Position numbers and translations under genes: made by a program. From sequence record NC_047812.1: DNA of 44,234 bases; one strand, written 5' to 3'. The stretch's first letter is position 1, and each line of letters begins with the position of its first letter. This document shows positions 1-44,234 of this stretch, piece by piece. The notes beneath the pieces are model-generated. The model made no database searches. It was not told where the DNA came from and saw only the letters and a program-made list of their open reading frames with translations. The DNA is from Escherichia phage vB_EcoS_CEB_EC3a.

Positions 1-404
1 CTAAGCTGACACGTAACGCCTGTAGCGCGATGTAAGCCAATGCCTATCGTTACGCTAGTTACGCGAAGCTACGCCCAGACTTACACTATAAGTGCCTAAT
101 ATATATATATATCTTCTTTCTATTATTATTATTATTATTAATATTATTGTATGTAAGTCATGTAACAGGGGTCCTGGCGATATCTATATGTTTTTTCCTA
201 TCAGTTATAGCCGAGGCTATAATTTAGGGTATGGTGGGGGTGTTTTGGGGATGTTTGCATCGTTACACGCACGACACGCTACTCACATTGAGCTATAGCT
301 GGGCTGGCATGCCATTTCACGTAACGACCCCCAAAAGTTACCAAGAATTACACTTGACTACACGTGTAAGTCGGGATATTATGGACTCAACTTAAACGAG
401 AGGA
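1..404. repeat. Noncoding iteron/AT-rich module, copy A (paralog of 26380-26770)
   Basis: About 10 copies of ACGTAAC/GTTACG-type 7-9-mers in both orientations, a (TA)n plus (ATT)n tract at 99-150, and the 22-mer ACATTGAGCTATAGCTGGGCTG at 285-306, identical to 26677-26698. ORF 92..298 translates to low-complexity sequence. Confidence 0.8.
354..382 (+). promoter_or_regulatory. Strong sigma70-type early promoter (TTGACT-17 nt-TATTAT)
   Basis: TTGACT at 354-359, a 17-nt spacer, TATTAT at 377-382, followed by the AACGAGAGGAG leader and ATG at 414. Confidence 0.7.
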
Positions 405-413
405 GTGATAGAG

Positions 414-893
414 ATGAGCGAGAAGGTAACATTAGGCCAAGTGATTCGTGAGATGGTAAAAGCAGCGCTTAAGTCTGAGGATAAGCAGATCAGCGTGACA
501 CTCAACAAGATTGAGAGCCTTATTGGTGCCGAAGATGGTGGCCTACACAAGCTTAAGAGCTCATACATCTATAATACAACGGCTCGCATGCCTGAATTGA
601 GAGATGCAGGACTGAAGGCAACTCACCATTATGATGAAGAAAGGGGTATTAATGAATTTACTGGGAGTGAGATACTTGGAGACAAGAAGCTGGTTATCAA
701 ACTGATTCCAGGCTCGGCAAACATTGGAATCAGGAAGAAGACCAACGACGCGATCAAGAATGAGGCAATCACTGAGTTCAAGGCGAAGATTTCTAAGGTG
801 ATGCCAGACCTTTCTGAGTATGAGGGTGAAGCGCTTGCGGCAGCGATGAAGGCCATTAAAGATTACCGATTAATTATTGAGGAGATTAAATAA
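414..893 (+). CDS. Hypothetical early protein (159 aa)
   Basis: ORF track 405..893 starts at GTG. ATG 414 sits 8 nt after AGGAG (401-405). First gene behind the consensus promoter. Confidence 0.75.
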   Translation: MSEKVTLGQVIREMVKAALKSEDKQISVTLNKIESLIGAEDGGLHKLKSSYIYNTTARMPELRDAGLKATHHYDEERGINEFTGSEILGDKKLVIKLIPGSANIGIRKKTNDAIKNEAITEFKAKISKVMPDLSEYEGEALAAAMKAIKDYRLIIEEIK

Positions 894-1414
894 TGTTTGA
901 CTTTAAAGACAAACTAACAAGCGAGCAGATCATCAATATTGCACGTGCTGATGGTTATCCACTATTGCGAGTTGCAATCAATGCCAATGGATATCGTAGC
1001 TAAAATAAGTTCTGGGGTCAGCCTGATGCGTCAGAAGTATACAAAGATGAGGCGCTTGGGGTTCTGATTAAGCTAATCATGAAAATGGCAAGGAACGGCA
1101 AAGGAGTTGTCGGCATCAGATATCTATATGAAGGTGCTCGCAAGCTGAAACCATTTGCTGGGCGCGATGGAATGATGCTAGTGATCAAGGACAAGCTAAT
1201 TCCAGAGCTCGATAAGATGAATGTTACCTGTCTAATTGGAGATAAGGTTTACGTCAACCCTGCCTTGACGGATTTAAGCTGGCAACCAAACTTCAAAACT
1301 TACGAAGGTGAGCATGCTAGTAGACTACCATACCACTTGCGGTACAGTGAGGGTGAAGTGGAGATGGCTGTCGAGTTCTACCGGAAAGCTAAATCACTCC
1401 TGAACGGTGAATAG
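893..1414 (+). pseudogene. Internally deleted, nonsense-interrupted paralog of the 527-aa ATPase (40729..42312)
   Basis: One reading frame. MFDFKDKLTSEQIINIARADGYPLLRVAINANGYRS then TAA (1001-1003), then ...ARNGKGVVGIRYLYEGARKLKPF...CLIGDKVYVNP. These match the N-terminus (MFDFNEDKLSVEQ...RVAINANGYRQ) and C-terminus (GKNGKGVVGIRSLYEAARKVKPF...CLIGDKVYINP) of the full gene. The Walker core is missing. Confidence 0.7.
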
Positions 1415-1454
1415 CACGGATTGCTAAACAATGGATCGGGTAGTCAGCTATAAT
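1412..1454 (+). promoter_or_regulatory. Dyad-promoter module (TAGCACGGATTGCTA-22 nt-TATAAT)
   Basis: Core 1412-1426, 22-nt spacer, TATAAT 1449-1454, leader TACCACATCGACAAC. Confidence 0.65.
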
Positions 1455-1478
1455 TACCACATCGACAACAAAGAGGAA

Positions 1479-1685
1479 ATGAAGATGAAAACTATGATTA
1501 TCGAAGATTTCGCAGGTGACATCACTGAGGTGTCTGCTTCAGTATATTACGACGGCATCGTGAGCATTGACATTGACACGGATAACTTAGGCGATGAAAT
1601 TACTATGTCTCACTATACACCAGAGCAAGCGCGCAAACTGGCGGCGGCATTAATCATGGCGGCGGAAGAGTCAGAGAAGCAATGA
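1479..1685 (+). CDS. Hypothetical small early protein (68 aa)
   Basis: ORF 1431..1685 overlaps its own -10 box. ATG 1479 follows AAGAGGAA. Confidence 0.7.
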   Translation: MKMKTMIIEDFAGDITEVSASVYYDGIVSIDIDTDNLGDEITMSHYTPEQARKLAAALIMAAEESEKQ

Positions 1686-1698
1686 ATGAGAAATTATA

Positions 1699-1917
1699 AT
1701 GCAAGTATATACGAATAGTAATGGCGTAGAGTATTGTGTTGTTTACGGAGTGGTTCTTCGCACTGTTGGTGGCCTCGGGATCATCAACATTTCAGTGATC
1801 AAGCCTGAATCACTGGTGAAAGGAATCCAGGCCGGAATCTTCAGCTTTCACTCAACGCTGACGGCTAAGCAGTATGTTACCCTCGCCAACGCGGTTAAGT
1901 ACGGTTTTATCAAATAG
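1699..1917 (+). CDS. Hypothetical small early protein (72 aa)
   Basis: ORF track. The stop TAG is the first triplet of the next dyad module. Confidence 0.6.
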   Translation: MQVYTNSNGVEYCVVYGVVLRTVGGLGIINISVIKPESLVKGIQAGIFSFHSTLTAKQYVTLANAVKYGFIK

Positions 1918-1958
1918 CACTTTTTGTTAAAAAGGGGATTCATCCTGACTGGTGTAAT
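1915..1958 (+). promoter_or_regulatory. Dyad-promoter module, variant half-site (TAGCACTTTTTGTTA-23 nt-TGTAAT)
   Basis: Core 1915-1929, TGTAAT 1953-1958, leader CCCCACATCAACCAAAC. Confidence 0.45.
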
Positions 1959-2110
1959 CCCCACATCAACCAAACAAATGGAAGTTAAGTGACCATATAC
2001 GAACATAAATTCAGCAGTAGGGGTATTGATATGCTCCTGCACTATTTAGACGAAAAATACGCAAATCTCATGCTTAAGGCGCATGGTGGAACAATAACGA
2101 GGATTGAGAT

Positions 2111-2371
2111 ATGAGCAAGTACGACCGCGAGATTATTGGTATTGATGGCACAGTAACAACAGTAGATGTTTATCGCGTTCTTGATGCGTTCAGCGTATCT
2201 GACCCAGCCACTCAGCATGCGGTAAAGAAGATGCTTTGTATGGGGTTGCGTGGACACAAGGATTACATAACCGACCTTAACGACTCAATCGAGTCATTAC
2301 AGAAAGCCAAGGAGCTTTACGGGCAAAAGATGATTCATCAATCGGATAAATCAAATCTGCGTGGTAAATAG
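2111..2371 (+). CDS. Hypothetical early protein, DUF3310-like (86 aa)
   Basis: ORF track with SD AACGAGGA. The segment AVKKMLCMGLRGHKDYITDLNDSIESLQKA resembles the DUF3310 family by eye. Stop TAG lies in the next module. Confidence 0.65.
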   Translation: MSKYDREIIGIDGTVTTVDVYRVLDAFSVSDPATQHAVKKMLCMGLRGHKDYITDLNDSIESLQKAKELYGQKMIHQSDKSNLRGK

Positions 2372-2411
2372 CACGAATTGCTAAACCCTCTCCGCAGGGT
2401 TTTGTTATAGT
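2369..2411 (+). promoter_or_regulatory. Dyad-promoter module (TAGCACGAATTGCTA-22 nt-TGtTATAGT)
   Basis: Core 2369-2383, 22-nt spacer, extended -10 at 2403-2411. Confidence 0.7.
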
Positions 2412-2440
2412 TAGTTCACACCAAACGAGAGGAAAAAAAG

Positions 2441-2671
2441 ATGATTACAATTAACCTGTCAGAGAAAGATGCGTCAACACTCAAGCAGCTTCTTTCAGGA
2501 AATCCGGTGCACACTAATGTTTATAACTTTGGTGAAGTAGAAAGGGAGGTTATCGCACAAATAAACAACCAGCAATTCGACGTAAGTGACTTCGAAAGTT
2601 CTAGACAATACGAGGCGATGAGCGTCAATGCTGCATACCTGACCAACTGGGATAAGGCGACTAATAAATGA
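2441..2671 (+). CDS. Hypothetical small early protein (76 aa)
   Basis: ORF track; SD AACGAGAGGA upstream. Confidence 0.7.
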   Translation: MITINLSEKDASTLKQLLSGNPVHTNVYNFGEVEREVIAQINNQQFDVSDFESSRQYEAMSVNAAYLTNWDKATNK

Positions 2672-2994
2672 TTTACATCCACACATATGGCGTAGGCAAG
2701 TTCGGAAAAGAGATTCATCGCACTGTTCACGATACGAAGGAATCAGCCGAAGCAGCACAAAAAGTTCTAGGCGGTGAGTTCAAGGCTTACCGCGAATCCG
2801 ATGACTCAGTTGATTGCTGGCGTGTAGAGCACATGCGAAACGTGCTTGAAAGTGAAGTATCCGAGCTTATAGACAACATGACATGTCACGGCCCAGGCGG
2901 TCCATGGGAGGAGCCAGGATCACCGGAATGGGATTGCGAAAAAGTTGAAACTATGAACAAGATTAGCGATATAATTGATGGTGTTTATCAGTGA
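2668..2994 (+). CDS. Hypothetical early protein (108 aa)
   Basis: ORF track; ATGA overlap with the upstream gene. Confidence 0.7.
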   Translation: MIYIHTYGVGKFGKEIHRTVHDTKESAEAAQKVLGGEFKAYRESDDSVDCWRVEHMRNVLESEVSELIDNMTCHGPGGPWEEPGSPEWDCEKVETMNKISDIIDGVYQ

Positions 2995-3088
2995 TTTTTT
3001 GATAAAATGATGCATCCTTAACGCCTCTTGGCAGCAGAAGGTGCTCGGTGGCACAATCAAGGTTTGCGAGATAATTAAAGAATACAAA

Positions 3089-3131
3089 TAGCACTAATTG
3101 CTAAACCATCATTGGGGTAATTTGTTATAGT
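3089..3131 (+). promoter_or_regulatory. Dyad-promoter module (TAGCACTAATTGCTA-22 nt-TGtTATAGT)
   Basis: Core 3089-3103, TATAGT 3126-3131. Confidence 0.7.
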
Positions 3132-3161
3132 TACCACACCCAAACTAACGAGGTTATAAGA

Positions 3162-3266
3162 ATGAGTGAATTAATTAAAACTATCGCGGACTATCCATTT
3201 GCTTCGCTTTTTCTTGCTCTTGCAATATATGAAATTGTAAAGATTATTGTAAAATGTATTAAATAG
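3162..3266 (+). CDS. Small hydrophobic peptide (34 aa, one predicted TM helix)
   Basis: Hand-translated MSELIKTIADYPFASLFLALAIYEIVKIIVKCIK. SD AACGAGG; stop TAG in the next module. Below the ORF-track size cutoff. Confidence 0.6.
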   Translation: MSELIKTIADYPFASLFLALAIYEIVKIIVKCIK

Positions 3267-3306
3267 CACGAATTTCTAAAACATTATCGGGGTATCTTGC
3301 TATAGT
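3264..3306 (+). promoter_or_regulatory. Dyad-promoter module (TAGCACGAATTTCTA-22 nt-TGcTATAGT)
   Basis: Core 3264-3278, TATAGT 3301-3306. Confidence 0.65.
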
Positions 3307-3336
3307 TACCCCATCAAAACGAAACAGGAAGCAGAA

Positions 3337-3693: not shown

Positions 3694-3833
3694 GTTTCAC
3701 TGAATACGTGATCGCATGCGAGCGACTGGTCTTTGATATGAAAACCTTCCACTGGTTCATCATTAAGGATTTAATCAAGCCTTATAAGCAGGGCGTTACG
3801 CCGGAGCGGTTTGTTAAGTCATTTTATAAATAG
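3690..3833 (+). CDS. Hypothetical small protein (47 aa)
   Basis: ATGA overlap with the upstream ORF; stop TAG is in the next module. Confidence 0.5.
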   Translation: MSFTEYVIACERLVFDMKTFHWFIIKDLIKPYKQGVTPERFVKSFYK

Positions 3834-3873
3834 CACGAATTGCTCAACGCAGTCGACACGGATGGCATATAAT
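3831..3873 (+). promoter_or_regulatory. Dyad-promoter module (TAGCACGAATTGCTC-22 nt-TATAAT)
   Basis: Core 3831-3845, TATAAT 3868-3873. Confidence 0.65.
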
Positions 3874-3903
3874 CACCTTACCAACACAACGAGAGATTGA
3901 GAC

Positions 3904-4661: not shown

Positions 4662-4736
4662 GCTCTGCTAGCTCAACAGGACAGCAGCAACGACCTTCTA
4701 AGTCGTAGGTTACTGGTTCGAATCCAGTGCGGAGCG
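4662..4736 (+). tRNA. tRNA-Arg (anticodon UCU)
   Basis: Hand-folded cloverleaf. 7-bp acceptor GCTCTGC/GCGGAGC, anticodon stem ACGAC/GTCGT with loop CTTCTAA, T arm ACTGG-TTCGAAT-CCAGT, CCA encoded at 4737-4739. Confidence 0.85.
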
Positions 4737-4745
4737 CCAAATTAA

Positions 4746-4844
4746 CGTCGCGTTGCTAATGTTGGTTAAAGGGTGGAGCTTATACCTCCATAAAGCAATC
4801 TCCAGATAAGAGATGTAACGCAGGTTCGATTCCTGCCGCGACGA
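4746..4844 (+). tRNA. Aberrant 99-nt tRNA-like gene (possible Ile anticodon UAU or GAU; may be a pseudo-tRNA)
   Basis: Perfect 7-bp acceptor CGTCGCG/CGCGACG, canonical T arm GCAGG-TTCGATT-CCTGC, CCA encoded. The D region is poor, and two competing anticodon hairpins exist (TGGAG-CTTATAC-CTCCA and ATCTC-CAGATAA-GAGAT). Confidence 0.5.
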
Positions 4845-5680: not shown

Positions 5681-7246
5681 ATGTCTTTAGTATGGGAAGA
5701 AATGACCATTCAGGAAAAGATGGCCGTTAAGGCGATATCAGAACACAGCTTCGAGGGTTTCCTTCGTTGCTGGTTCCAGATTACACAAGGCGAGCGATAC
5801 ATCCCTAACTGGCATCACAAGTACTTGTGCAGAATCATTGATGAGATTATCGCAGGAGATCGCAAGGACACCATCATTAACATAGCACCAGGCAGCGGAA
5901 AGACGGAAATTGCCTCAATCCACTTCCCGGCCTATTCGATGGTTAAGCTTAGGAAGGTGCGCAACCTTAACATCTCTTTTGCTGACTCCCTGGTTAAGCG
6001 TAACTCGAAGCGAGTACGTGACCTTATCAAGTCTCAAGAATTTCAGTCACTCTGGCCATGCAAATTTGGCACCTGCAAAGACGATGAGCTTCAGGTTCTT
6101 GATGAGAGTGGCAAGGTTAGATTTGAGTCAATATCAAAGGCGGCTGGAGGCCAGATTACTGGCGCTCGCGGTGGGTACATAACCGAAACATACAGCGGAG
6201 CCGTTCTTTTGGATGACTTTGACAAACCCGCAGATATGTTATCAGCAGTGTACCGCTCGAATAATCACGTAATGCTTAAAAATACGATTCGCTCACGTCG
6301 AGCCAGTTCTGTAAAAGGCAAAGCGACACCAATCATTTCGATACAGCAGCGGCTTCACGTCAATGACTCAACCTATTTCATGATGGAAGGCGGCATGGGT
6401 ATCGAATTCGATTTGATTAAGATACCAGCATTAGTTACTGAGGATTACCTAGACACACTACCTGAATGGATTAAAGAACAGTTTGAAGAGGATGTCCTTA
6501 GTAGTGAATACATAGAGCGCGATGGAGTAAGGTATTACAGCTACTTCCCTAAAAAGGAGTCAGTCAATGACTTGGTTGCGATGTGGGATAGTGACCCTTA
6601 CACCTTCCTTAGTCAGTATCAACAAGAACCAGTAGCTCTAGGTGGCAACCTTATTAACGTAGATTGGTTCCAGCGCCTTAGCGACACGTTCAGACCTCCA
6701 GCTAAGTACGATTATAGATTTATAACTTGCGATACAGCTATGACTACAAAAAGTTATAGTGACTTCTCTGTCCTTCAATTGTGGGGTTATAAAGATGCTA
6801 AGATTTACCTTATTGACCAGCGCAGGGGGAAATGGGAAGCGCCCGAGTTAGAGGCAGAGTTAATCGATTTCGAGAAGAAATCAAGGGCAACCAGTCAATC
6901 GGATGGTATCCTCCGAAAGATTATCATCGAGAAGAAAGCATCTGGAATCGGACTCATTCAATCAGCAAGTCGAGTCATGAGAACGCCAGTGGAACCTTAT
7001 GTTCCTGATAATGACAAGTTAACAAGGGTGATGAGTGCGCTGCCACAGATTAAGGCTGGTAACGTAGTTCTTCCTGAGTCTGCGCCGTGGTTAAGCGGAT
7101 TGCTTACTGAGATTGCGGCATTTACCGCTGACGACAGCCATAATCACGACGACCAAATTGATACCATGACAATGGCTATCAACCTGGTTCTGAACATTGC
7201 GGATGATCCTAAGTCGAGACTGATGCGCATAGCGGGAATGAAATAG
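5681..7246 (+). CDS. terL: Terminase large subunit
   Basis: 521 aa; Walker A PGSGKTE, Walker B-like VLLDDFDK, C-terminal nuclease-like acidic motifs (HDDQIDT). Position upstream of the portal gene. Confidence 0.9.
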   Translation: MSLVWEEMTIQEKMAVKAISEHSFEGFLRCWFQITQGERYIPNWHHKYLCRIIDEIIAGDRKDTIINIAPGSGKTEIASIHFPAYSMVKLRKVRNLNISFADSLVKRNSKRVRDLIKSQEFQSLWPCKFGTCKDDELQVLDESGKVRFESISKAAGGQITGARGGYITETYSGAVLLDDFDKPADMLSAVYRSNNHVMLKNTIRSRRASSVKGKATPIISIQQRLHVNDSTYFMMEGGMGIEFDLIKIPALVTEDYLDTLPEWIKEQFEEDVLSSEYIERDGVRYYSYFPKKESVNDLVAMWDSDPYTFLSQYQQEPVALGGNLINVDWFQRLSDTFRPPAKYDYRFITCDTAMTTKSYSDFSVLQLWGYKDAKIYLIDQRRGKWEAPELEAELIDFEKKSRATSQSDGILRKIIIEKKASGIGLIQSASRVMRTPVEPYVPDNDKLTRVMSALPQIKAGNVVLPESAPWLSGLLTEIAAFTADDSHNHDDQIDTMTMAINLVLNIADDPKSRLMRIAGMK

Positions 7247-7286
7247 CACAAATTGCTAAACACTAAAGCCACGGATGGCGTATAGT
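7244..7286 (+). promoter_or_regulatory. Dyad-promoter module (TAGCACAAATTGCTA-22 nt-TATAGT)
   Basis: Core 7244-7258 contains the terL stop; TATAGT 7281-7286. Confidence 0.65.
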
Positions 7287-7315
7287 TACTTCACACAAAC
7301 GAGAGGAGAAGAAAG

Positions 7316-23800: not shown

Positions 23801-24289
23801 AACGCCACATCGACTGGCGTACAGTACGGGATTAGCCTTGGCCTGAAATACAATGGGCAGACTTATTCATCCGGGATGAGCATGGAGCTTGTTGGCACCG
23901 GTGGGAATGTTCGCAGCCAGTTCATTTTTGATGCAAACAGATTCGCGATCAGTAACGGCATTGGCTCTGGTTCCGGTCAGTGGCAGCTCCCCTTCGTTGT
24001 CGAGAACGGAAACGTAATCATCCAGAGCGCAGTAATCGGTGATGGTTCAATCAGTAACGCGAAGATTGGTAACTTTATTCAGTCAAATAACTATGTGGCA
24101 GGAACTACAGGCTGGAGGATTGATAAATCAGGAAGTGCAGAGCTAAGCAACGCCACTGTAAGAGGTAATCTTTACGCTAACAATGGTAACTTCGCATTCA
24201 ACGGAACCAATAACACTGTTCAGATTAACAACAATGGAATTACGGTAAACTTACCGAACGGAGGTAGAGTTGTAGTTGGAGTGTGGTAA
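20864..24289 (+). CDS. Central tail fibre/host specificity protein, lambda gpJ-like
   Basis: 1141 aa, last gene of the M-L-K-I-J cluster. Contains FN3-like repeats and a coiled-coil region. Confidence 0.9.
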   Translation: MAQMIKTNMRLRDMAEEIKIYGAKGGSQKQHQPVEQEDNLISLNKVKVLLAVADGEVDSNFSMKDLYLADVPVQNQDGSYNYEGVRAEFRAGTQYQEYIAGLDGANSEIQASREITNDTPYIIAVNNTQLSAIRIKLFWPRLVKQESNGDLNGITCEYAIDLSVNGGAYQEYTRGVANGKTTTGYDRSIRVNLPAEFDSALVRIRKITADSTSSTLVNGMQITTYQEVIDAKFRYPLTALVYVEFGSDLFPNGIPTISIKKRWKLIQVPTNYDPETRTYSGTWNGLFKMAWSNNPAWVLYDLVTNRRYGLDQRELGVEIDKWGLYEAAQFCDQMVPDGKGGMEPRYLCDMVVQNKVEAYTLIRDICSIFRGLTFYDGEKIGIVVDKPRNPSYIFTNDNVVNGLFSRTFASDKSLYTTANVQFDDVENNYQQDVEPVFELEATRRFGFNPVDLTAIGCTRRSEANRRGRWLLKTNLRSETISFTTGLEGMIPMIGEVIAVNDAAWSSNYQLNLSGRIESVQGLQVFTPFKVDAAPGDRILLNKPDGSPEARTIASVSEDGRTINLNTAFSFVAQPDTVFAIDKDNLALQQYVVTGIQKADSDGSDSFQYTITAVEYDPNKYDEIDYGVNIVDRPTSIVEPDRLSPPENLTVSSYSKVVQGLSVETMVIGWDKAPYAKTYNVQWRKENGNWINVPRTASTEVDIEGIYAGIYDVRVRSVSDTENVSAWSDIVTVSLTGKIGRPSAPTVITASNDEVFGIRVKWGFPDGSGDTAYTELQQVADNGDGTYNPDNASLLTLLPYPAYEYWHTPIQPGKVIWYRARLIDRIGNTSDWSNFSRGMSTDDANIINDYIKVDIEGSEGFKYLEQNAIQKNQDIQNQAESILENALANDTDVRRMTKENGKRKAEYVQAVNLIADETQARVEALTQLKAQIDDEVVASITEVQTALATETEARTTSDTQLSARIGDNEAALNQKLDAFANATSTGVQYGISLGLKYNGQTYSSGMSMELVGTGGNVRSQFIFDANRFAISNGIGSGSGQWQLPFVVENGNVIIQSAVIGDGSISNAKIGNFIQSNNYVAGTTGWRIDKSGSAELSNATVRGNLYANNGNFAFNGTNNTVQINNNGITVNLPNGGRVVVGVW

Positions 24290-24295
24290 ATGATT

Positions 24296-24318
24296 AGGCC
24301 CCTTTCGGGGCCTTTTCT
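24296..24318. terminator. Bidirectional intrinsic terminator
   Basis: AGGCCCC-tttc-GGGGCCT with T-runs, between convergent gpJ and RBP genes. Confidence 0.75.
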
Positions 24319-25563: not shown

Positions 25564-25606
25564 ATAGTATCGAATCCTTGCGATCAGTGTTTAGCAATTA
25601 GTGCTA
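25564..25606 (-). promoter_or_regulatory. Dyad-promoter module (minus strand) driving lipoprotein and RBP
   Basis: Core 25592-25606, 22-nt spacer, TACTAT (plus-strand ATAGTA 25564-25569), leader TACCACATCGAAACGAAAC. Confidence 0.65.
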
Positions 25607-26251
25607 TTTCTTTTCGAGTAACATCTTGATGTCAATGCCGAGATTATTTTCAATCAATCCAGTCAGTGCATCCGTCTTTTCTTTAAGGGCAAAACACTGA
25701 GCTTCATACTTAAATCTTTCCTCCATCTCGTCAGAGCGACTAACCCAGCACTGGCGAGCCTCGCAAGCCAGCATGTCGAGTTTTTCATCGGTATTCTTAT
25801 CCATGAGTAAGATCTCATTTATTCTTTGCTCTGCAACAATGCGCTGACTAAGGTGTGCATTTTGCGCATTAGCCACACCAAGCATCATTCGCACTTCTTT
25901 TAACTCATCAATGCTTACCATCTGGCTGATTACTTCTTCTTGTTTTTTAACTAATTGCTCAAGCTCATGAAGTCGACGGATAACTTTGTGTCGAAGCACG
26001 ACGCTGTAGCCAGTGATTAGCGTTTCGGTGAGTTCCTTGTTGAGTAAAATCTCAGATGTATAGCCTCGATTGTCTGTAAGTAGTTGATAATCATAATGAC
26101 CCAAATCTGGGGCATCGTTATAATGTAACAATTCATTGATCATTTCCTTTGTGTCGCGAACGACGTGATCATGACGTTTCCCGGTTAACTCTGCGATTTC
26201 CTTTGTGCTCATCATGGTTTTTGGTTGTTCTTTGTACAATTCAATGTTCAT
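25604..26251 (-). CDS. Rha-family phage regulatory protein
   Basis: N-terminus MSTKEIAELTGKRHDHVVRDTKEMI matches the Rha signature. ATG 26251 is preferred because SD AAGAGAG lies 6 nt upstream. Stop TAG is in the next module. Confidence 0.7.
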   Translation of the reverse strand: MNIELYKEQPKTMMSTKEIAELTGKRHDHVVRDTKEMINELLHYNDAPDLGHYDYQLLTDNRGYTSEILLNKELTETLITGYSVVLRHKVIRRLHELEQLVKKQEEVISQMVSIDELKEVRMMLGVANAQNAHLSQRIVAEQRINEILLMDKNTDEKLDMLACEARQCWVSRSDEMEERFKYEAQCFALKEKTDALTGLIENNLGIDIKMLLEKK

Positions 26252-26322
26252 TTTCATCTCTCTTTGGTTTTGTGATACGAAATTTTCGTAGCACAAGCAG
26301 CACCATTGCCGCCATGCGCCTA

Positions 26323-26365
26323 AATATAACTAAAGATAGTCAGTTGTCTTTAGCAATTAGTGCTA
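26323..26365 (-). promoter_or_regulatory. Dyad-promoter module (minus strand) driving rha
   Basis: Core 26351-26365, 22-nt spacer, TATATT (plus-strand AATATA 26323-26328). Confidence 0.6.
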
Positions 26366-26379
26366 TTTATCGCCAATTT

Positions 26380-26770
26380 CACCATAAATCACGGTTACAC
26401 GTAACCGATGTAACTCTATGTATACAATATCATCCGCGGAAAATGATATACGCGCTGTTACGCCAATTTACGCATTGGTTACATTAAAATATCTATATAT
26501 ATCAACCTTTTACTCTTATTATTATTATTATATATATTACTGTGTATATCATGTAACTACTTCTATAGAGTGTTCCGGTTATAATTTTAATATCATGTGG
26601 ATTTATACAGTATTGCGTGGCAACTATACCAACGCACCCTCAGCCAGGAATGGTATACACGATATACACGACGGTTACATTGAGCTATAGCTGGGCTGAG
26701 GTGCCCAAAAACGTAACGAGAGCTAATACCTACACGGAATTACGAGGATTCACACGTAACTTTAAGTCAA
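26380..26770. repeat. Noncoding iteron/AT-rich module, copy B (paralog of 1-404)
   Basis: Colinear blocks with copy A: ACACGTAAC, (TA)n, (ATT)n, TCATGTAAC, TATAAT, the 22-mer ACATTGAGCTATAGCTGGGCTG (26677-26698), then ACGTAACGA and CACACGTAAC. ORFs 26418..26690 and 26149..26487 are low-complexity artefacts. Confidence 0.8.
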
Positions 26771-26772
26771 CG

Positions 26773-26816
26773 ATTGGCAAAACCAATTGGACTTGTTGCG
26801 ATGCCGAATATATAGT
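26773..26816 (+). promoter_or_regulatory. Variant dyad-promoter (ATTGGCAAAACCAAT-23 nt-TATAGT) for the recombination operon
   Basis: A different 5-N5-5 palindrome (26773-26787) occupies the position of the TAGCA dyad. TATAGT 26811-26816, leader TACCTCATCGAAAGC. Confidence 0.55.
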
Positions 26817-26853
26817 TACCTCATCGAAAGCAAGCAACCAGAGAGATATAGAA

Positions 26854-27048
26854 ATGACCTACTACATTATCAAAGAGAAAAACAATGCACTGTTCGGCGA
26901 CTGCTACTTTGGCGGGCCTGCTGGATACACCACAGATAAGAATGAGGCAGACCGATTCGATACCAAAGAAGAAGCCAGAGATGTTCTGACCGGGTACTTC
27001 ACTGAGGAAGATTTGAAGTCTGTTAAAGTGGTTAAGGTCAAGGGGTAA
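26854..27048 (+). CDS. Hypothetical protein (64 aa)
   Basis: ATG 26854 follows AGAGAGATATAGAA. The longer ORF 26617..27048 runs through the promoter and iterons. Confidence 0.65.
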   Translation: MTYYIIKEKNNALFGDCYFGGPAGYTTDKNEADRFDTKEEARDVLTGYFTEEDLKSVKVVKVKG

Positions 27049-27051
27049 GTT

Positions 27052-28017
27052 ATGAGCTTTACTGTTTACACACGAGAAGAACTATCAAACTCTGAGTACC
27101 ACTCTGAGACTGATCACATCTCCGGTAGCTCGCTTGTCGAGATTATCCATGGTTCGCCAGCTAAGTGGAAATTCAAACAGCGCAATAATGATAGTAAGGC
27201 TCTTAAATTTGGCACGCTGTCACATACTTACATCCTAGAAGGTGACATGTTTGATAAAGAATTCCTTCGAGCCACAGACCTTGACGCGATTGAAGGCTTA
27301 ATTACAAGCCAGACCGGATTATCGGCAGCGCTGAAAAAAGTTGGCGTTGCTGGCACGTCTGGGAAGGGCTATAGCGAACTTGTAGAGATGATGTATCGCT
27401 CCGGTGAGGATTGGCCTGTTAAGTGGCTAATTGAACAGCAGGAGAGTGCTCAGGCGCTTGTGGAGGGTAGGGAGCTAGTTAGCGCGGCAGACTATGACAA
27501 AGTGGTGGCGATGCGTGAGGTTCTTTGTAATATTCCAGCATATAATGCAATAGTGAACAGCGAGACAGCGCAGAAAGAGCTATCAATCTTTGGTGAGATT
27601 CTCGGCGTCGGCGTGAAGATTCGAATTGACCACGTTGATGTTGTTGATGGTGTGGTGTGTATTACCGATCTGAAAACGACAGCCAGCGCATCACCTCAGG
27701 AGTTTGGGAGACTTGCATTCAAGCATGGGTATCTTGCAAAAATGGCTCTACAGCACGATGTTTTTGTTATGGCTTTTAATGAAAAAAGAAAAACAAAAGT
27801 AAGGCTACTTGCAATCGAGAAAGAGGAGCCTTACCTACCAATGCTTTACAACATTACAGAAGAGCAACTGAAGGTTGGTCGCAGAATGTATTTAGAGGCG
27901 CTTGCCACTTACAAAAAGTGCAAAGAGAATGATGTGTGGCCCGGTTATGCAATGGGCGCAACAGAGATCGACCTAGATGTTCCTGAGTGGGATATGAGGA
28001 AGTATAAAGAAATTTAA
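27052..28017 (+). CDS. PD-(D/E)XK (RecE/RecB-like) recombination exonuclease
   Basis: 321 aa with IRIDHVD...ITDLKTT (D...D-x-K) nuclease core. Directly upstream of an ERF annealase. Confidence 0.7.
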   Translation: MSFTVYTREELSNSEYHSETDHISGSSLVEIIHGSPAKWKFKQRNNDSKALKFGTLSHTYILEGDMFDKEFLRATDLDAIEGLITSQTGLSAALKKVGVAGTSGKGYSELVEMMYRSGEDWPVKWLIEQQESAQALVEGRELVSAADYDKVVAMREVLCNIPAYNAIVNSETAQKELSIFGEILGVGVKIRIDHVDVVDGVVCITDLKTTASASPQEFGRLAFKHGYLAKMALQHDVFVMAFNEKRKTKVRLLAIEKEEPYLPMLYNITEEQLKVGRRMYLEALATYKKCKENDVWPGYAMGATEIDLDVPEWDMRKYKEI

Positions 28018-28018
28018 A

Positions 28019-28061
28019 TAGCACGAATCGCTAAAGACAAAATTAAAAGGTGGGGTATGAT
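28019..28061 (+). promoter_or_regulatory. Dyad-promoter module (TAGCACGAATCGCTA-22 nt-TATGAT)
   Basis: Core 28019-28033, TATGAT 28056-28061. Confidence 0.55.
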
Positions 28062-28090
28062 TACCCAATCAACAACGAACGAGGTTAAAG

Positions 28091-28741
28091 ATGCAAATTT
28101 CAGAATCATGCAAATCAATTTTAAACGCGCTACACACTGCCAAGTCGCTATTTGCGAAGGCTGAAAAGTCGAAGCAGAACTCGCACCTAAAGAACAGATA
28201 CAGTACTCTTGATGATGTTCTTGCTGCTGTGGAGCCTGGCCTTGAAGAATGTGGTCTTGTAATGTTTCAGAGCGTAATTGATAGCGAAGATACTGGACTA
28301 TTAAAGGTTGAGACAAAGTTATTCCATGCGGAGTCAGGTGAGTGGGTTAGCTTCTTAATGATTGTCCCAATCAGCAAGAATGACGCTCAAGGTTACGGAT
28401 CAGCATTAACATACGCTCGACGTTACGGAATCACAGCGGCATTAGGACTTAGCCAGGCAGATGATGATGGAAATCTTGCAGCGAAGGGTGTTAAGGACTT
28501 TAAGCGAGAACTTGAGAAGTGCAATACTCTTGATGAGCTTCGCAATGTCTGGAAAGATGCTAAGCAATCACTTGATGCGGCAGGATGGAAGGTCTTTGAA
28601 CCTCATATTATCGAGCGCAAAGCAGAGATAGAGGCTAATGCAGCAACTGGCTTCAACCCGGCAACACCAAAGAAAGTTGCAGAAAAAAGTAGTCCTGAAG
28701 AAAAGATTGAAGTAGAATCACAACAAATCGACACATTCTAA
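28091..28741 (+). CDS. erf: ERF-family single-strand annealing protein
   Basis: NRYSTLDDVLAAVEP...GYGSALTYARRYGITAALGL is characteristic of the ERF family. Confidence 0.75.
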   Translation: MQISESCKSILNALHTAKSLFAKAEKSKQNSHLKNRYSTLDDVLAAVEPGLEECGLVMFQSVIDSEDTGLLKVETKLFHAESGEWVSFLMIVPISKNDAQGYGSALTYARRYGITAALGLSQADDDGNLAAKGVKDFKRELEKCNTLDELRNVWKDAKQSLDAAGWKVFEPHIIERKAEIEANAATGFNPATPKKVAEKSSPEEKIEVESQQIDTF

Positions 28742-28785
28742 ATTTTACGGGGCTACGGCACCAAACCAACAGAGAGATATAAAAC

Positions 28786-29217
28786 ATGCACGTAATTACT
28801 GGTCAGATTCGACGCGCTCCATTCACTAAGGAAGGTCAGAATGCTAATGGTACCTGGAAAATGTTCGCGGTTGATTTGAGTGAGCGATACAAAGATAAAG
28901 ATGGTCAGACTCAGTATAATAACTATCGCGCCGTCTTTTTCGCTAAAGAGTCAATGCTAGATTGGTACAATGAGGCATTTCAAGAGGGTAAAGTTGTTAG
29001 CGTTAGCGCTGAAAGTTTATCTGTAGATGTTCGTGACAAAGATGGTAAAACATACGTAACCATTAATATGAATAATCCACGACTTGAGTTTAGCCAGCGT
29101 GGCGATGGTGGTGGTCAACAACGGCAACAGCAGCGTCATCAGCCACAACAACCACAGCAACAGCAACAGCAACAACCGAAGCAGCAACAGAACTTCGAAG
29201 ATGATATTCCTTTCTAA
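28786..29217 (+). CDS. ssb: Single-stranded DNA-binding protein
   Basis: OB-fold-sized N-terminal domain, Gln/Pro-rich linker, canonical acidic tip FEDDIPF at the C-terminus. Confidence 0.85.
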   Translation: MHVITGQIRRAPFTKEGQNANGTWKMFAVDLSERYKDKDGQTQYNNYRAVFFAKESMLDWYNEAFQEGKVVSVSAESLSVDVRDKDGKTYVTINMNNPRLEFSQRGDGGGQQRQQQRHQPQQPQQQQQQQPKQQQNFEDDIPF

Positions 29218-29222
29218 AGAAA

Positions 29223-29246
29223 AGGCCCCTTTCGGGGCCTTTTTTA
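29223..29246. terminator. Bidirectional intrinsic terminator
   Basis: AGGCCCC-tttc-GGGGCCT followed by T6, between convergent ssb and fibre genes. Confidence 0.8.
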
Positions 29247-32120: not shown

Positions 32121-32143
32121 AAAAAAACCTCCCGAAGGAGGTT
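32121..32143 (-). terminator. Intrinsic terminator after primase
   Basis: Minus strand: AACCTCC-ttcg-GGAGGTT followed by T7. Confidence 0.8.
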
Positions 32144-33065
32144 AGTCTAGTAATTCGCTTGCTTTGTATATTCGCTTTCTTATGCCTGACTTGAAAAAAT
32201 TATCATCATTTGGCATTACCACATCAAGATTGCGATCGTCAGCAACAGCGAGTAAATCAAAATCGTGGCGAGTACAAGCGACGCGTAACTTGTAGTTTCT
32301 AAGCGCATAAGCAACCATTTCCATGTTGTAGCTGGAGTGGCAAACAAGCACACAGCGGTTGCCAGTAGCAATGTGAACGCGATAGCCGTCAATGAGATTA
32401 TCGACCAGATAAGCGTACTCATCATCTTTAAAGGCGCCAATAATAGAAACAGACTGGCGAGTATAATCTTTTGCAGCATAGCTAACATCTCCATCTTCAT
32501 TGATAAACATTACATTGCACATATCATCTGATATGCCGTCACTATAAGCCATAAAGCACGGTACTGCGTGTATTAGTTCGCCTGATTTAGTCCTGCCAAC
32601 ATCAAAACCAAATTCGCTATAGATACCCTCGTATATACTGAGCGGTGTTGATTCTACTCTTTCCGTCCTTTCCATTATCTCAAGGCATCTTTCGTGGTCA
32701 ATCTGCGCGCCCATTTTATAAAGCTTAGTTCTTGATGCTTGCTTGTTTGCCTTAACTATAACCTCAATTGGTGTTAAGTTCAGCCAGTCACCAAGCAAAT
32801 TCACTGAATCGGCGAAGGACGATCCAGTGCACTTCATGACCCATCCTATACCTGAGTCACTTCCGCATTTCGAACAAACTGCCGCGCCATTTCCTTTTTC
32901 ACTGCCTATTTCGTCGGTAAATCTGAATCTGTCAGTGCCAAGGCAGTATGGGCATGGTCCGTGCTTCTTACTTAGGTGTCTATCATTCCAACCAAGTTCC
33001 TTTGCATAAAATAATTTCCACAATCCGGCCATCTTAGGTATAACTTCATTCTTATCGTAATTCAT
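32142..33065 (-). CDS. DNA primase (Zn-ribbon + Toprim-like)
   Basis: CPYCLGTDRFRF...CSKCG zinc ribbon of the P4/T7-type primase N-terminus. The acidic Toprim-like segment is C-terminal. Confidence 0.7.
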   Translation of the reverse strand: MNYDKNEVIPKMAGLWKLFYAKELGWNDRHLSKKHGPCPYCLGTDRFRFTDEIGSEKGNGAAVCSKCGSDSGIGWVMKCTGSSFADSVNLLGDWLNLTPIEVIVKANKQASRTKLYKMGAQIDHERCLEIMERTERVESTPLSIYEGIYSEFGFDVGRTKSGELIHAVPCFMAYSDGISDDMCNVMFINEDGDVSYAAKDYTRQSVSIIGAFKDDEYAYLVDNLIDGYRVHIATGNRCVLVCHSSYNMEMVAYALRNYKLRVACTRHDFDLLAVADDRNLDVVMPNDDNFFKSGIRKRIYKASELLD

Positions 33066-33593: not shown

Positions 33594-34067
33594 TTACTCT
33601 TTAGCTTTTCGTGCGGCTTCGTTAGCTGCCTTGATCTTTCGCCATGAGCGACACTCTGGTTTAGTTGCTAGCTCAGCCTCAGTAACAACACGCAGCATAT
33701 GACGCTTCTTGCAACGTAGAGTTAGCGGTTTCCCGTTACCGTCGAATTGCAGATCTGGTCGGCAGAATGTAGCGCGAAAACCTTCTCCATTTCGCTTATA
33801 GTAGTTGTGCGACAGCTGGGCGCCGCGCGCAGAAATCATCCCACGCTTAAACCATTCTTCTACAGCCTGAGGTGTCACCTTTAACTGCTTTGCGATATTT
33901 GCCTTTGTGCCGAAGAAATCAAGAACAATCTCCAACCGTGCGCGCAACCCAGCCCTTACCTCGTCTTTTAAAACGTAGTAGCCTGAAGGTCGTTTCCGTT
34001 GTTTTTTGTCTTCAGTACGAATGGTTCCGTTGTTCCCGTTAATTGTTCGCTTGTCTACTGCATTCAT
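33594..34067 (-). CDS. Putative HTH DNA-binding protein (157 aa)
   Basis: HTH-like segment NIAKQLKVTPQAVEEWFKRGMIS; basic termini. Confidence 0.55.
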   Translation of the reverse strand: MNAVDKRTINGNNGTIRTEDKKQRKRPSGYYVLKDEVRAGLRARLEIVLDFFGTKANIAKQLKVTPQAVEEWFKRGMISARGAQLSHNYYKRNGEGFRATFCRPDLQFDGNGKPLTLRCKKRHMLRVVTEAELATKPECRSWRKIKAANEAARKAKE

Positions 34068-36584: not shown

Positions 36585-36624
36585 CACGAATTGCTAAAGA
36601 CGATTTTAAAAGATGCGATATAGT
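36582..36624 (+). promoter_or_regulatory. Dyad-promoter module (TAGCACGAATTGCTA-22 nt-TATAGT)
   Basis: Core 36582-36596, TATAGT 36619-36624, leader TACCACATCGAAACGAAAC. Confidence 0.7.
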
Positions 36625-36662
36625 TACCACATCGAAACGAAACACATAGAGAGAGAAACAAA

Positions 36663-40728: not shown

Positions 40729-42312
40729 TTACCCCAGCAGTCTAGGATTAATGTAAACTTTATCACCAATCAGGCACGTGTAGTTTTTCTCATCAAGCAT
40801 TGGCAGCAAGTGATCTTTAATCTTCGTCATTACTCCAGCCTGAGCCTCGAATGGCTTAACCTTACGAGCCGCTTCATACAATGAACGAATGCCAACTACG
40901 CCCTTACCGTTCTTACCTTGCTTGATCAGAATATCAATCAGCTTATTCATCTCGGCATTGTCGCCAGCGTGACCAGCGGCGTTAGCAGATGACAAATAAG
41001 TCTTGCTAAGTTCCTGGAACATAATTACAGCCTCTTGCATGGTTTCGAGTTCAATCTCTCTGGACTTCTGCGGACTCCCGCCATTTGGGTTAAACCAGTT
41101 ACGCACAGTGTGAAGGACCGCTGCAATCCTGATAGCCTGCTTATCAAACTTACCAAGCGCACCGCGAAGCATTGTGTGAGAATACTTACCGCCGTCAGCG
41201 AGGTGAGGCTCCATTTCCTGACGTGCTCGGTTGAGGTACTTCATCGCTGAGTTGCTTACTGTCAGCTTAACATCTTGCTCATTCATTATTTCGTGAACCA
41301 AGCGGAAGTAGTCAGCCTTCAGGCCACCATCAATAGGTTCGTAAGTTGAGTCTCCATTCTCATCAACGAATACACGTTCGCCGAGGAATGACTTCTCGCG
41401 CACAAGAAGGAAACGTTCCGATACACCGATACCACGCGCGCCAGCATTCATGATTGCATTGATTGTTTCATCCTGCGCAATTACAGAGATGCAACCCATA
41501 GCAACGAAACTCATGTTGTTTTCTGCGTTCGCACGCGCGATAGACACGTTACCCGCATCCCATGCTTTCAGTACAAGTTCGCTGTTCGTTTTCTTGGATC
41601 CGTCACCGTAGGTCATGCCAAGCAGCGAGTTCACGCTCGTCGCCTCATCCGAGATGACTGCGAAGTTGCCCTGGCGGTTGTTGATTCGAGCAAGGCCTTC
41701 AGGCGTGGTATCTGATACTGGGAATACGATATCGCACAACTTCTCCAGCTTTTCTTCCAGCTCCTCTTTCTCCTCAAAAAGTGAAGCCATCTCTGACGGG
41801 GATTTTTCCTGCTTCATCTCTTTCGATAATGTAGATAGCTTAGCCATAATCTTTTTGCGCTCACGCTTGCGCACTTCATTAAGTCGCTCAGTCTCAGTAA
41901 TCATTGGAGCAATCGAAAGTGAGTTAATGGCCGACTTACCAGTTGATGGCGGTTGGCTTGTCACGACGTAAAGAGATGTTGGCTGTTGGGTGCCATGATA
42001 CTCGACAGTAAAGCGTCCAAGCATTGCGGCAGAAATACACCCAAGGAAGTGCATATAAGCTGAAGACTCTGGAAACTGAACTGAACGAGCGATGTTAGAT
42101 GACAATTTACCAACAACATCAATATCATTTCCTAGTGAGATTACGGGGTATTTGTCATTTGCAGCATCAATCTCCACTGGTGCTTTCCAGAATGATTGAG
42201 ACTGGCGATAGCCATTGGCATTAATGGCGACTCGCAGTGGCGGGAGGTTGTCTGCGGCAGCAATTGCCATAACCTGTTCAACAGATAGTTTATCTTCGTT
42301 GAAATCAAACAT
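40729..42312 (-). CDS. Walker A/B ATPase, DUF3987-like putative replicative helicase/initiator
   Basis: 527 aa. Walker A SQPPSTGKSA, Walker B FAVISDEATS. Overall resemblance to DUF3987/primase-associated helicases, judged by eye. Confidence 0.65.
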   Translation of the reverse strand: MFDFNEDKLSVEQVMAIAAADNLPPLRVAINANGYRQSQSFWKAPVEIDAANDKYPVISLGNDIDVVGKLSSNIARSVQFPESSAYMHFLGCISAAMLGRFTVEYHGTQQPTSLYVVTSQPPSTGKSAINSLSIAPMITETERLNEVRKRERKKIMAKLSTLSKEMKQEKSPSEMASLFEEKEELEEKLEKLCDIVFPVSDTTPEGLARINNRQGNFAVISDEATSVNSLLGMTYGDGSKKTNSELVLKAWDAGNVSIARANAENNMSFVAMGCISVIAQDETINAIMNAGARGIGVSERFLLVREKSFLGERVFVDENGDSTYEPIDGGLKADYFRLVHEIMNEQDVKLTVSNSAMKYLNRARQEMEPHLADGGKYSHTMLRGALGKFDKQAIRIAAVLHTVRNWFNPNGGSPQKSREIELETMQEAVIMFQELSKTYLSSANAAGHAGDNAEMNKLIDILIKQGKNGKGVVGIRSLYEAARKVKPFEAQAGVMTKIKDHLLPMLDEKNYTCLIGDKVYINPRLLG

Positions 42313-42342: not shown

Positions 42343-42385
42343 ATTATATCAACGACCGCTTATAATTCATTATCAATTTGTGCTA
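42343..42385 (-). promoter_or_regulatory. Dyad-promoter module, variant half-site (TAGCACAAATTGATA-22 nt-TATAAT)
   Basis: Core 42371-42385, TATAAT (plus-strand ATTATA 42343-42348). Confidence 0.6.
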
Positions 42386-42386
42386 T

Positions 42387-43978: not shown

Positions 43979-44004
43979 ATCTATCTCCTCGTTTTGATGA
44001 GTTA

Positions 44005-44048
44005 ACTATATCCTCCATGACCCACAATGTCTTTAGCAAAAAGTGCTA
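44005..44048 (-). promoter_or_regulatory. Dyad-promoter module (minus strand) for the leftward early operon
   Basis: Core 44034-44048 (TAGCACTTTTTGCTA on minus), 23-nt spacer, TATAGT (plus-strand ACTATA 44005-44010). Confidence 0.65.
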
Positions 44049-44234
44049 TTCGTTAGATTTATTGATTGTTGCATATATTGCAATGATTATCATGACTATT
44101 GCACATATGGCAATATTGCTTCAGATGCAATGATGTTTTTGATTGTTGCGAAAAGTGAAATGAAGTTGGGAGTGAGTGAATGAAAGATGGATGGACTACC
44201 ATACAAGTTGATTTTGATTCCCGCTGAGCCATTT
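44049..44234. repeat. Noncoding cluster of short AT-rich palindromes and TTGATTGTTGC direct repeats
   Basis: ATTGCAAT, ATGATtATCAT and GCAATATTGC palindromes, TTGATTGTTGC twice, and five TTGCA/TGCAA elements. No credible ORF. Confidence 0.6.

Follow-up and report, generated by a model that had tools for sequence, protein, structure and literature searches.

A duplicated repeat module as a candidate pair of replication origins in the T1-like Escherichia phage vB_EcoS_CEB_EC3a

What function is served by a non-coding module that is present in two diverged copies in the genome of Escherichia phage vB_EcoS_CEB_EC3a? We addressed this question using record NC_047812.1 (44 234 nucleotides, analysed at full length and referred to here as the window), in which module A lies at positions 1–404 and module B at 26380–26770. 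An initial annotation of the window had proposed that the modules act in replication, and had named a packaging (pac) site or arrays of transcription factor sites as alternatives. In the papers on T1-like genomes the origin could not be found (PMC7718038; PMC11447400). From the comparisons described below, we consider that there is about an even chance that the modules are a pair of replication origins, each made of short repeats (iterons) and a DNA-unwinding element.

Two colinear copies of one non-coding module

By comparison with its relatives, the window holds a complete phage genome of the Drexlerviridae (T1/Rtp-like) in circularly permuted form, because in those genomes the sequence of the window end precedes window position 1. 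Position 1 is an arbitrary cut in a 669-bp intergenic region (43979..44234+1..413), the ends being contiguous in relatives, and copy A is cut by this junction. Copy B sits in the intergenic gap 26297..26853. Both copies occupy gaps of divergent transcription, in agreement with the initial annotation, and the gene order of the window is that of Rtp and T1. The best matches of positions 1–3000 were PsgS01F (95%), UALMA_PCEc3 and AugustePiccard, the last of which is classified in Drexlerviridae, Braunvirinae. Some host labels in the databases look doubtful, perhaps owing to a contaminant or to mis-assignment: the records PP134917.1 and MG065688.1 ('Pseudomonas phage PsgS01F' and 'Campylobacter phage A110b') are Rtp-like coliphages by sequence.

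A global pairwise alignment showed that A and B are colinear, diverged direct copies, each ~370 bp long. The local alignment score was 70, as against 21.8 ± 2.9 in shuffled sequences (z = 16.6), and BLAST returned two matching segments, 98–166 with 26488–26557 (E = 2.6e-13) and 285–327 with 26677–26719 (E = 2e-8). The shared blocks listed in the initial annotation were found where it had placed them: ACACGTAAC at 9–17 and 26397–26405, TCATGTAAC at 158–166 and 26549–26557, and an identical 22-mer at 285–306 and 26677–26698. The 22-mer has exactly 2 matches in the window even when up to three mismatches are allowed (0 expected). TATAAT boxes do occur at 218–223 and 26580–26585, but they do not constitute a shared block, as they are unaligned between A and B and not kept in relatives. 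The ACGTAAC motif occurs 11 times in the window (3.1 expected), 5 of the 11 being inside the two modules. The earlier count of about 10 repeats per copy holds for the relaxed motif RYGTAA[CG], with 10 in region A and 9 in region B; the density of motifs in the modules is 6–8 per 400 bp compared to ~0.5 expected.

The open reading frames that run through the modules (92–298, 231–395, 26418–26690 and 26617–26853) have their frames split or missing in TH21, 12397V, AHP24 and T1; in TH21 and 12397V, where they are split across frames, protein identity is not above DNA identity. Rfam, searched at the gathering threshold over the whole window, returned only two tRNAs and no family in the modules. 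These tRNA genes (4662–4736 and 4746–4844, + strand, the second of 99 nt) are annotated as tRNA-Arg and tRNA-Ile in the closest relative. Module B had zero homologs in the plasmid and E. coli genome collections, and a scan of IMG/VR for the 17-mer TTGAGCTATAGCTGGGC retrieved 2 contigs only.

The blocks follow one order in both modules (Table 1). A leftward 21-nt repeat is followed by 2–3 + strand repeats (ACGTAAC, ATGTAAC/G), a phased array in the opposite orientation and the AT tract. After the AT tract come two + strand repeats, ~100 bp of variable DNA, the GAGCTATAGCTGGGC box and a small variable palindrome, and the right end consists of 3–4 further repeats and then the rightward promoter. 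Read on the − strand, the array of A is made of GCGTAAC-type repeats. The inner right repeat is the reverse complement of the last left-array repeat in both modules, and in A, GACTTACA and TGTAAGTC form an 8-nt inverted pair that spans the AT tract. Inverted pairs of at least 7 nt across the AT tract were observed in 9 of 13 modules, as compared to 10.5% of random positions. Phased arrays (TAC[GA]C triples) were found in the modules only, in 7 genomes, where ~0.02 are expected per genome. The AT tract of A is the AT-richest 60-bp segment of the genome (55/60), the stretch 97–157 being 90% AT compared to 56% genome-wide, and that of B is the second (53/60). The tract of B also has an exact core consensus of the integration host factor (IHF), of which the window contains only 2 occurrences. 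Two readings of smaller parts were tried and rejected: a sigma-54 promoter or terminator in the 22-mer region (the spacing of GG and GC does not fit, and conservation is limited to a 3-bp symmetry, GGC-N6-GCC), and DnaA boxes in the TATACACG repeats (just 7/9 matches by eye).

Table 1. Positions of the module blocks and of neighbouring features in the window
Feature	Position	Strand	Composition and remarks
A distal left repeats	9..36	+	ACACGTAAC 9–17, ATGTAAG 30–36; align with ACACGTAAC / ATGTAAC / ATGTATAC of copy B
A phased array	49..86	−	GTTACGC 49–55, GTTACGC 58–64, GCTACGC 68–74, CTTACAC 80–86; spacing 9, 10, 12 bp
A AT tract, candidate DNA-unwinding element	97..149	.	(TA)n, CTTCTTTCT, (ATT)6 at 122–139, AATATTATT
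A right inner repeats	151..166	+	ATGTAAG 151–157, ATGTAAC 160–166; inverted relative to left array
A 22-mer zone	262..313	+	GTTACAC 262–268, 22-mer ACATTGAGCTATAGCTGGGCTG 285–306, small palindrome GGCATGCC 306–313
A proximal repeats	319..370	.	ACGTAAC 319–325 (+), GTTACC 337–342 (−), ATTACAC 347–353 (−), GTGTAAG 364–370 (+)
A sigma-70-type promoter	354..382	+	TTGACT-17-TATTAT, 10/12 match; drives DUF7174 gene 414–893 and small-ORF block
Mini-paralog of helicase	893..1414	+	N-terminal ~45 aa, C-terminal winged helix, ~55-aa tail; candidate accessory factor linked to module A
21-nt repeat, region B left border	26346..26368	−	drives Rha-like gene 25604–26296
B distal left repeats	26394..26425	+	GTTACACGTAAC 26394–26405, ATGTAAC 26408–26414, ATGTATAC 26418–26425
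CCGCGGAAAA block	26434..26443	.	part of TTCCGCGGAA-type palindrome; in 5/7 aligned B modules
B phased array	26447..26484	−	TATACGC 26447, GTTACGC 26457, TTTACGC 26467, GTTACAT 26478; spacing 10, 10, 11 bp
B AT tract, candidate unwinding element	26487..26548	.	IHF core TATCAACCTTTTA 26500–26512, (ATT)4 26518–26529, (AT)n
B right inner repeats	26542..26557	+	GTGTATA 26542–26548, ATGTAAC 26551–26557 (exact reverse complement of GTTACAT 26478–26484)
B 22-mer zone	26654..26706	+	TATACACGATATACACG 26654–26670, GTTACAT 26674–26680, 22-mer 26677–26698, small palindrome GGGCTGAGGTGCCC 26693–26706
B proximal repeats	26711..26760	.	ACGTAAC 26711–26717, ATTACG 26739–26744, ACGTAAC 26754–26760
B rightward promoter-like site	26788..26816	+	TGGACT-17-TATAGT; serves 64-aa gene 26854–27048 and exoVIII/Erf/SSB operon 27052–29217
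DUF3987 (SF6, MCM-like) helicase	40729..42312	−	C-terminal winged helix; candidate initiator-helicase
21-nt repeat, early operon	44029..44051	−	AATAGCAC..TTGCTAAA; promoter-type; operon ends with DUF3987 helicase; left border of region A
Three 15-bp palindromes TTGCA-N5-KGCAA	44069–44083, 44099–44113, 44116–44130	.	probable pac/small-terminase site
21-nt repeat, + strand copies	2366–2424, 3086–3144, 3261–3319, 3828–3886, 7241–7299, 28016–28070, 36579–36637, and others	+	
21-nt repeat, − strand copies	25587–25609, 26346–26368, 42366–42388, 43199–43221, 44029–44051, and others	−	

Conservation of the module pair and its link to a DUF3987 helicase

We compared seven full genomes belonging to four lineages, namely the window, Rtp, AHP24 (Rogunavirinae), T1 (Tunavirinae), 12397V and T145P1 (Veterinaerplatzvirus) and TH21 (Nouzillyvirus), together with parts of TLS (Tempevirinae; NC_009540.1 1–588, locus L018, and 28707–29117, positions 208–618 of locus L019). 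In each of the seven, the two AT-richest 60-bp segments are the A and B tracts (51–55/60, as compared to 46–50 for the third), and the tracts at the two TLS loci have 54/60 and 53/60. An alignment of 14 modules showed the same colinear block order at both loci in all the lineages, and the layout at both loci is kept in T1, Rtp-like, Rogue1-like, Nouzillyvirus and TLS genomes. The initial annotation had regarded relatives lacking either copy as evidence against an origin; T1, TLS and every Drexlerviridae relative examined carry both. Its remark that two such modules in one siphophage would be unusual did not hold, as the pair is a family-wide trait and oriL and oriR of SPP1 provide a published precedent (PMC6316719). 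The TLS modules (L018 1–588, L019 208–618) have GTGAACA/TGTTCAC repeats and a common GAATCC..GGCGTA block. This is contrary to the 2024 re-annotation of TLS, which reports the absence of iteron-like repeats genome-wide (PMC11447400).

Cross-phage conservation of module B begins at 26396. Its core (26396–26568) is 82.8% identical to that of AHP24, whose coding genes are 67–78% identical, and the module is 80.3% identical to that of TH21 over 366 bp, where most coding genes are 65–78%. Module B outscores nearly all coding genes in identity, and therefore the constraint on this non-coding DNA is stronger than that on almost all the proteins; judged by these identities, it is under purifying selection. 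A palindromic block at its left side, CCGCGGAAAA / TTTTCCGCGGAAA, reads CCGCGAAAAA in 12397V, none is found in the B module of T1, it occurs twice in module A of Rtp (locus L003, ~45750+640 and ~+845), and it is missing from module A of this phage.

Contigs of seven more distant phages (L009, L010, L011, L014, L015, L016 and L017) were retrieved via homologs of the DUF3987 helicase (36–60% identity). We observed that an AT tract with flanking repeat clusters adjoins the helicase gene or operon in all seven, although only part of it is visible in L014, which is truncated at the edge of the locus. The repeats themselves differ: ATGTAAG in L009 (10 copies, around a (GTT)12 centre), GTTACC in L010 (three phased copies), ATTACAC/GTGACA in L014, CGTACAA and GTGAAC in L017, GGGCGAA in L011 (14 hits per 400 bp compared to 0.54 expected), GGGCAYA in L015 and TGGGGT in L016. 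The microsatellite unit at the centre of the AT tract also varies by lineage, being (ATT)4–6 here, (GTT)12, (TAAAT)4, (TAC)4 and (TATTA)3 elsewhere, and (TA)n plus T8 in T1 (loci viewed: window 122–139 and 26518–26529, L009 9203–9759, L015 2983–3782, L016 5543–6076 and L010 7517–8224). Its copy number differs between A and B and among the phages, which may reflect slippage or the use of the microsatellite as a periodic single-strand track. As the repeat sequence changes on a constant layout, the comparison points to repeats that are read by a co-evolving phage-encoded binder and not by a host factor. A constant layout, changing repeats and linkage to the helicase are together the expected look of an origin with a co-evolving reader.

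The product that the initial annotation had called a 527-aa ATPase is a DUF3987/MCM-like replicative helicase. In its AlphaFold2 model (predicted local distance difference test, pLDDT, 89.5), the closest structural match is to MCM2-7 subunits and the last 90 residues form a winged helix; neither the helicase nor its C-terminal domain had sequence matches among solved structures. [quoted passage not shown] The truncated ATPase paralog described next to module A is indeed a paralog of this helicase, but it has no ATPase core, and instead joins the N-terminal ~45 aa of the helicase to the C-terminal winged helix. This mini-paralog lies two genes to the right of module A, and is interrupted in this phage by an in-frame TAA at codon 37, so that here it would be either a pseudogene or a gene restarting at 1079. 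Intact copies occur in PsgS01F, AugustePiccard, AHP24, 12397V and TH21; those of Rtp and T145P1 are degenerate, and T1 has none. In every pair compared, the ATPase core of the helicase is better conserved than its N-terminal ~60 residues and its C-terminal winged helix (identities of N-terminus, core and C-terminus: 60%, 79% and 60% between the window and TLS; 51%, 76% and 59% between L011 and L015), and the mini-paralog is a duplicate of exactly these two fast-evolving parts.

The helicase, via its N- and C-terminal parts, is our leading candidate for the reader of the repeats, and the mini-paralog is another candidate. A 73-aa protein encoded directly upstream of the helicase in two distant phages (L011 9769–9990, L015 3783–4004), whose repeats are GGGCGAA and GGGCAYA, respectively, is a further candidate, as a specificity factor; it is only 36% identical between them, compared to 59–92% for its neighbours. 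In the window, the protein at this place is encoded at 42387–42830. We also sought a protein that is present throughout the phages with YGTAAC-type repeats and absent from those with the GGGCGAA type, and the proteins common to L009 and the T1-likes were just two helicases and an SSB-like protein. Scans of DUF7174 and the small early proteins gave no hint of DNA binding.

Possible replication origins and the alternatives

Both copies have the clustered, phased repeats (3–4 7-mers at 9–12 bp spacing) and the adjacent AT-rich tract of an iteron origin, and the genome has two separate regions of like organisation, as dual-origin genomes do. The use of the same repeat motif in A and B is compatible with one binder for both. 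The anatomical part of the earlier interpretation, iterons flanking an easily melted AT tract, was thus upheld and was strengthened by the comparative data. The functional part, namely the binding of the repeats by an initiator, the identity of this initiator, the melting of the AT tract and the start of replication there, is what we infer from sequence.

We propose the following sequence of events. A phage-encoded protein would bind the YGTAAC/GTTACR repeats, of which the left arm offers 3–4 helically phased copies, and since the innermost repeats are inverted, the complexes would oppose one another from the two sides of the AT/(ATT)n tract. This tract, predicted to be the easiest DNA of the genome to melt and placed between divergent promoters, would then open, possibly aided by IHF and by transcription-driven negative supercoiling. 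The DUF3987 helicase would load next, followed by the zinc-ribbon primase (32142–33065) and the host polymerase. By position, module A corresponds to the one module that the distant relatives have beside their helicase operon, whereas module B is an old second copy that lies upstream of the recombination operon (exoVIII/Erf/SSB). The repeats beside and within the rightward promoters probably also regulate transcription. Initiators often autoregulate through their own iterons, and for this reason origin and operator roles may coexist in one module.

[quoted passage not shown] Its oriL and oriR are, like A and B, two separate repeat-plus-AT-rich regions, and one of them is intergenic and bracketed by transcription signals (PMC6316719). 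SPP1 differs in having the origin-binding protein gp38, the loader gp39, the DnaB-type helicase gp40 and an oriL inside gene 38, whereas in the present phage the helicase is the MCM-like DUF3987 protein, neither gp38 nor gp39 could be recognised, and there is no sequence similarity to SPP1. The lambda ori contains four ~19-bp iterons within the O gene, which are bound by the O protein. Lambda ori and the oriV of theta plasmids share with the modules clustered short repeats beside an AT-rich tract and transcription nearby (for this layout, see PMC11447400). The modules are unlike lambda in that their repeats are 6–7 bp long and stand to the left and to the right of the AT tract, and also in being non-coding and in occurring twice per genome. 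Among the genes scanned, none was recognised as a homolog of O/P or Rep.

In the satellite phage P4, ori and crr are separate cis regions with common short repeats, both bound by the C-terminal domain of the primase-helicase alpha. The annotation likens T1-type primases to alpha proteins of the P4 type, and the repeats of TLS and L017 (GTGAACA, TGTTCACC) presumably resemble the P4 octamer. The systems differ in that the primase and helicase are separate genes in this phage and the helicase is of the DUF3987/SF6 class. In the initiator-helicase origins of SaPI (Rep/ori), SV40 (large T) and papillomavirus (E1), opposed repeats flank an AT-rich segment and the recogniser is a hexameric helicase of SF3. 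The measured repeat symmetry and the MCM-like helicase with its winged helix are similar here, binding by the helicase being a candidate function; the difference lies in SF3 versus SF6 helicases. No known origin with sequence homology to the modules was found, and our literature search retrieved neither origin mapping nor transcription-start maps for the T1 family, nor a defined phage origin for the MCM-like DUF3987 helicase class.

Several observations weigh against replication origins at both modules. Only one module per distant phage was seen in the retrieved DNA, and because these relatives showed one, the system does not need a second copy. Module B does not adjoin replication genes. GC/AT skew and cumulative skew track gene orientation only and are uninformative on replication. 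The N- and C-terminal domains of the helicase, compared across 12 phages, show no clear clustering by repeat class: P0096 has a C-terminal domain near that of this phage yet GGGCGAA repeats, and P0120 is very divergent yet has TGTAAG repeats. Finally, an operator or UP-element interpretation explains much of the same anatomy, because the modules lie between divergent promoters and their repeats abut or overlap the rightward promoter.

In this latter interpretation, the modules are two divergent early-promoter hubs, in which the AT tract raises promoter strength as an UP element or a stretch of curved DNA, operators are supplied by the YGTAAC repeats and the duplication provides co-regulation; a phage regulator would activate the early operons or later shut them off. 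We regard this as the main rival, possible although well below an even chance. Apart from the location in divergent-transcription gaps, it is consistent with the good sigma-70 promoter that ends module A (354–382), which has repeats just upstream and GTGTAAG (364–370) within its spacer; at the aligned place, the A modules of four relatives (TH21, Rtp, T145P1 and AHP24) have a readable promoter-like pair (alignment read by eye). A promoter-like site also ends module B (26788–26816), weak promoter-like matches (9/12 at most) overlap the AT tracts, where the annotators of AHP24 placed a promoter, and a Cro-like helix-turn-helix regulator is encoded at 33594–34067. Lineage-specific repeats are equally expected of operator-repressor pairs. 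The conserved core (array, AT tract and inverted repeats), however, is separated from the rightward promoters, which follow 190–330 bp downstream, and does not contain a conserved −35/−10 pair of its own. No hexamer pair is conserved beside the AT tract in the 14-module alignment, contrary to what an UP-element promoter predicts, and the TATAAT boxes are not conserved either. Because (ATT)n differs in length from copy to copy and from phage to phage, no fixed-spacing promoter can span the AT tract. In the distant phages, moreover, the module tracks the helicase gene and not any common regulator, the proteins shared by L009 and the T1-likes being those listed above.

The ordinary promoters of this phage use another repeat, the 21-nt element, which also argues against the modules being promoter hubs. 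One leftward copy of it, not noticed in the initial annotation, borders each module. The T1-family 21-nt intergenic repeat (aaATAGCACnnnTTGnTAAAA) is a conserved repeat like those of the modules, but is promoter-type and lies outside the AT-tract/iteron core; the paper on TLS describes the same repeat and lists its function as an open question (PMC11447400). Its structure is aaATAGCAC-N3-TTGCTAAA, with the palindrome TAGCA-N5-TGCTA within it, a conserved TATAGTTAC 22 bp later and no −35 hexamer. With its centre at ~−42 from the predicted start, the palindrome has the geometry of a class-II activator-dependent promoter. The Rha/anti-repressor-like gene (25604–26296, − strand), located between lipoprotein/cor-type genes and module B, has its own, duplicated 21-nt promoter repeat, at 25587–25609 and 26346–26368. 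As Rtp and T1 have no Rha-like gene there, this gene resembles a moron that was inserted at the left edge of module B.

Returning to replication origins, we regard as rather doubtful a more specific version in which A and B form a division-of-labour pair, served by the MCM-like initiator-helicase and regulated by the mini-paralog. Module A would be the ancestral helicase-linked origin, the fast-evolving N- and C-terminal parts of the helicase would recognise the inverted repeats, and helicases would load head-to-head around the microsatellite, which would act as a periodic single-strand track. Module B would be a second origin, or else a fork barrier, formed by bound protein, at which replication passes from the theta mode to recombination-dependent synthesis of concatemers, as has been suggested for oriR of SPP1, and the N+C mini-paralog would be a competitive regulator of origin firing.

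A role of the modules as recombination hot spots or fork-processing sites, which would start recombination-dependent replication by providing, for example, a break or R-loop for exoVIII/Erf/SSB, is unlikely. Module B is directly upstream of the exoVIII/Erf/SSB operon, and the second origin of SPP1 has been proposed to stall forks and so trigger the switch to concatemer synthesis (PMC6316719). No nuclease site or recombinase-specific signal is recognisable in the modules, though, and module A and the single module of the distant phages are linked to the helicase and not to recombination genes.

Very unlikely, in our view, are docking arrays for a host DNA-binding protein (an OmpR/CpxR-type regulator, IHF or nucleoid proteins) that would sense the host state or organise the injected DNA. 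The reverse complement of the array reads GTAAA-N5-GTAAC-N5-GTATA, direct repeats at 10–11 bp that we take to be similar to winged-helix response-regulator sites, and the exact IHF core consensus, at 26500–26512 in module B, is found at this position in 6 of the 14 modules. With a conserved host factor, one would nevertheless expect conserved repeats, whereas they change among related phages with the same layout (L011/L015, TLS, L016).

The pac function appears to belong to neighbouring DNA. TTGCA-N5-KGCAA palindromes occur 6 times in the window (1.5 expected), and 3 of them form its sole cluster (44069–44130), to the left of the duplicated core of copy A and without a counterpart in module B. 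The T1 record, which has an annotated terminal repeat 1..2800, starts 1 nt before a homologous palindrome, and the Rtp record starts within one. Because these record starts map there and module B has no such palindromes, we assign the probable pac site to the cluster rather than to the duplicated core that the initial annotation had considered; given the T1 terminal repeat, module A would therefore lie within the terminal redundancy of T1. That the modules themselves are pac signals or secondary pac sites for the small terminase is the least probable explanation: T1-like genomes reportedly carry pac in region A (PMC7718038) and several database records begin within window 44040–44192, but the record starts sit in the palindrome cluster outside the duplication, TLS virion DNA gave one submolar pac fragment and no sign of a second packaging series (PMC11447400), and the module of the distant relatives is as a rule beside the helicase and not the terminase. 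Elsewhere in the window, near-identical GGCCCCTTTCGGGGCC hairpins with flanking A and T runs, located at the two convergent gene junctions (24289–24316 and 29216–29243), look like bidirectional terminators.

Significance for T1-like phages

T1 belongs to the classic set of seven T phages, and its relatives are common contaminants of laboratories and fermentations as well as candidates for phage therapy. For this family, T1 and TLS included, the modules provide two short, precise and testable candidate sites and are, on sequence evidence, the best current candidates for the origin or origins. If the origin interpretation is true, it would give the first origin/initiator model for phages with SF6 helicases, and would explain the strongest non-coding conservation in these genomes. 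It would also offer handles for engineering, such as phage-dependent plasmid amplification and anti-contamination CRISPR targets. If the modules are operator arrays instead, they would define the early regulatory switch of the family.

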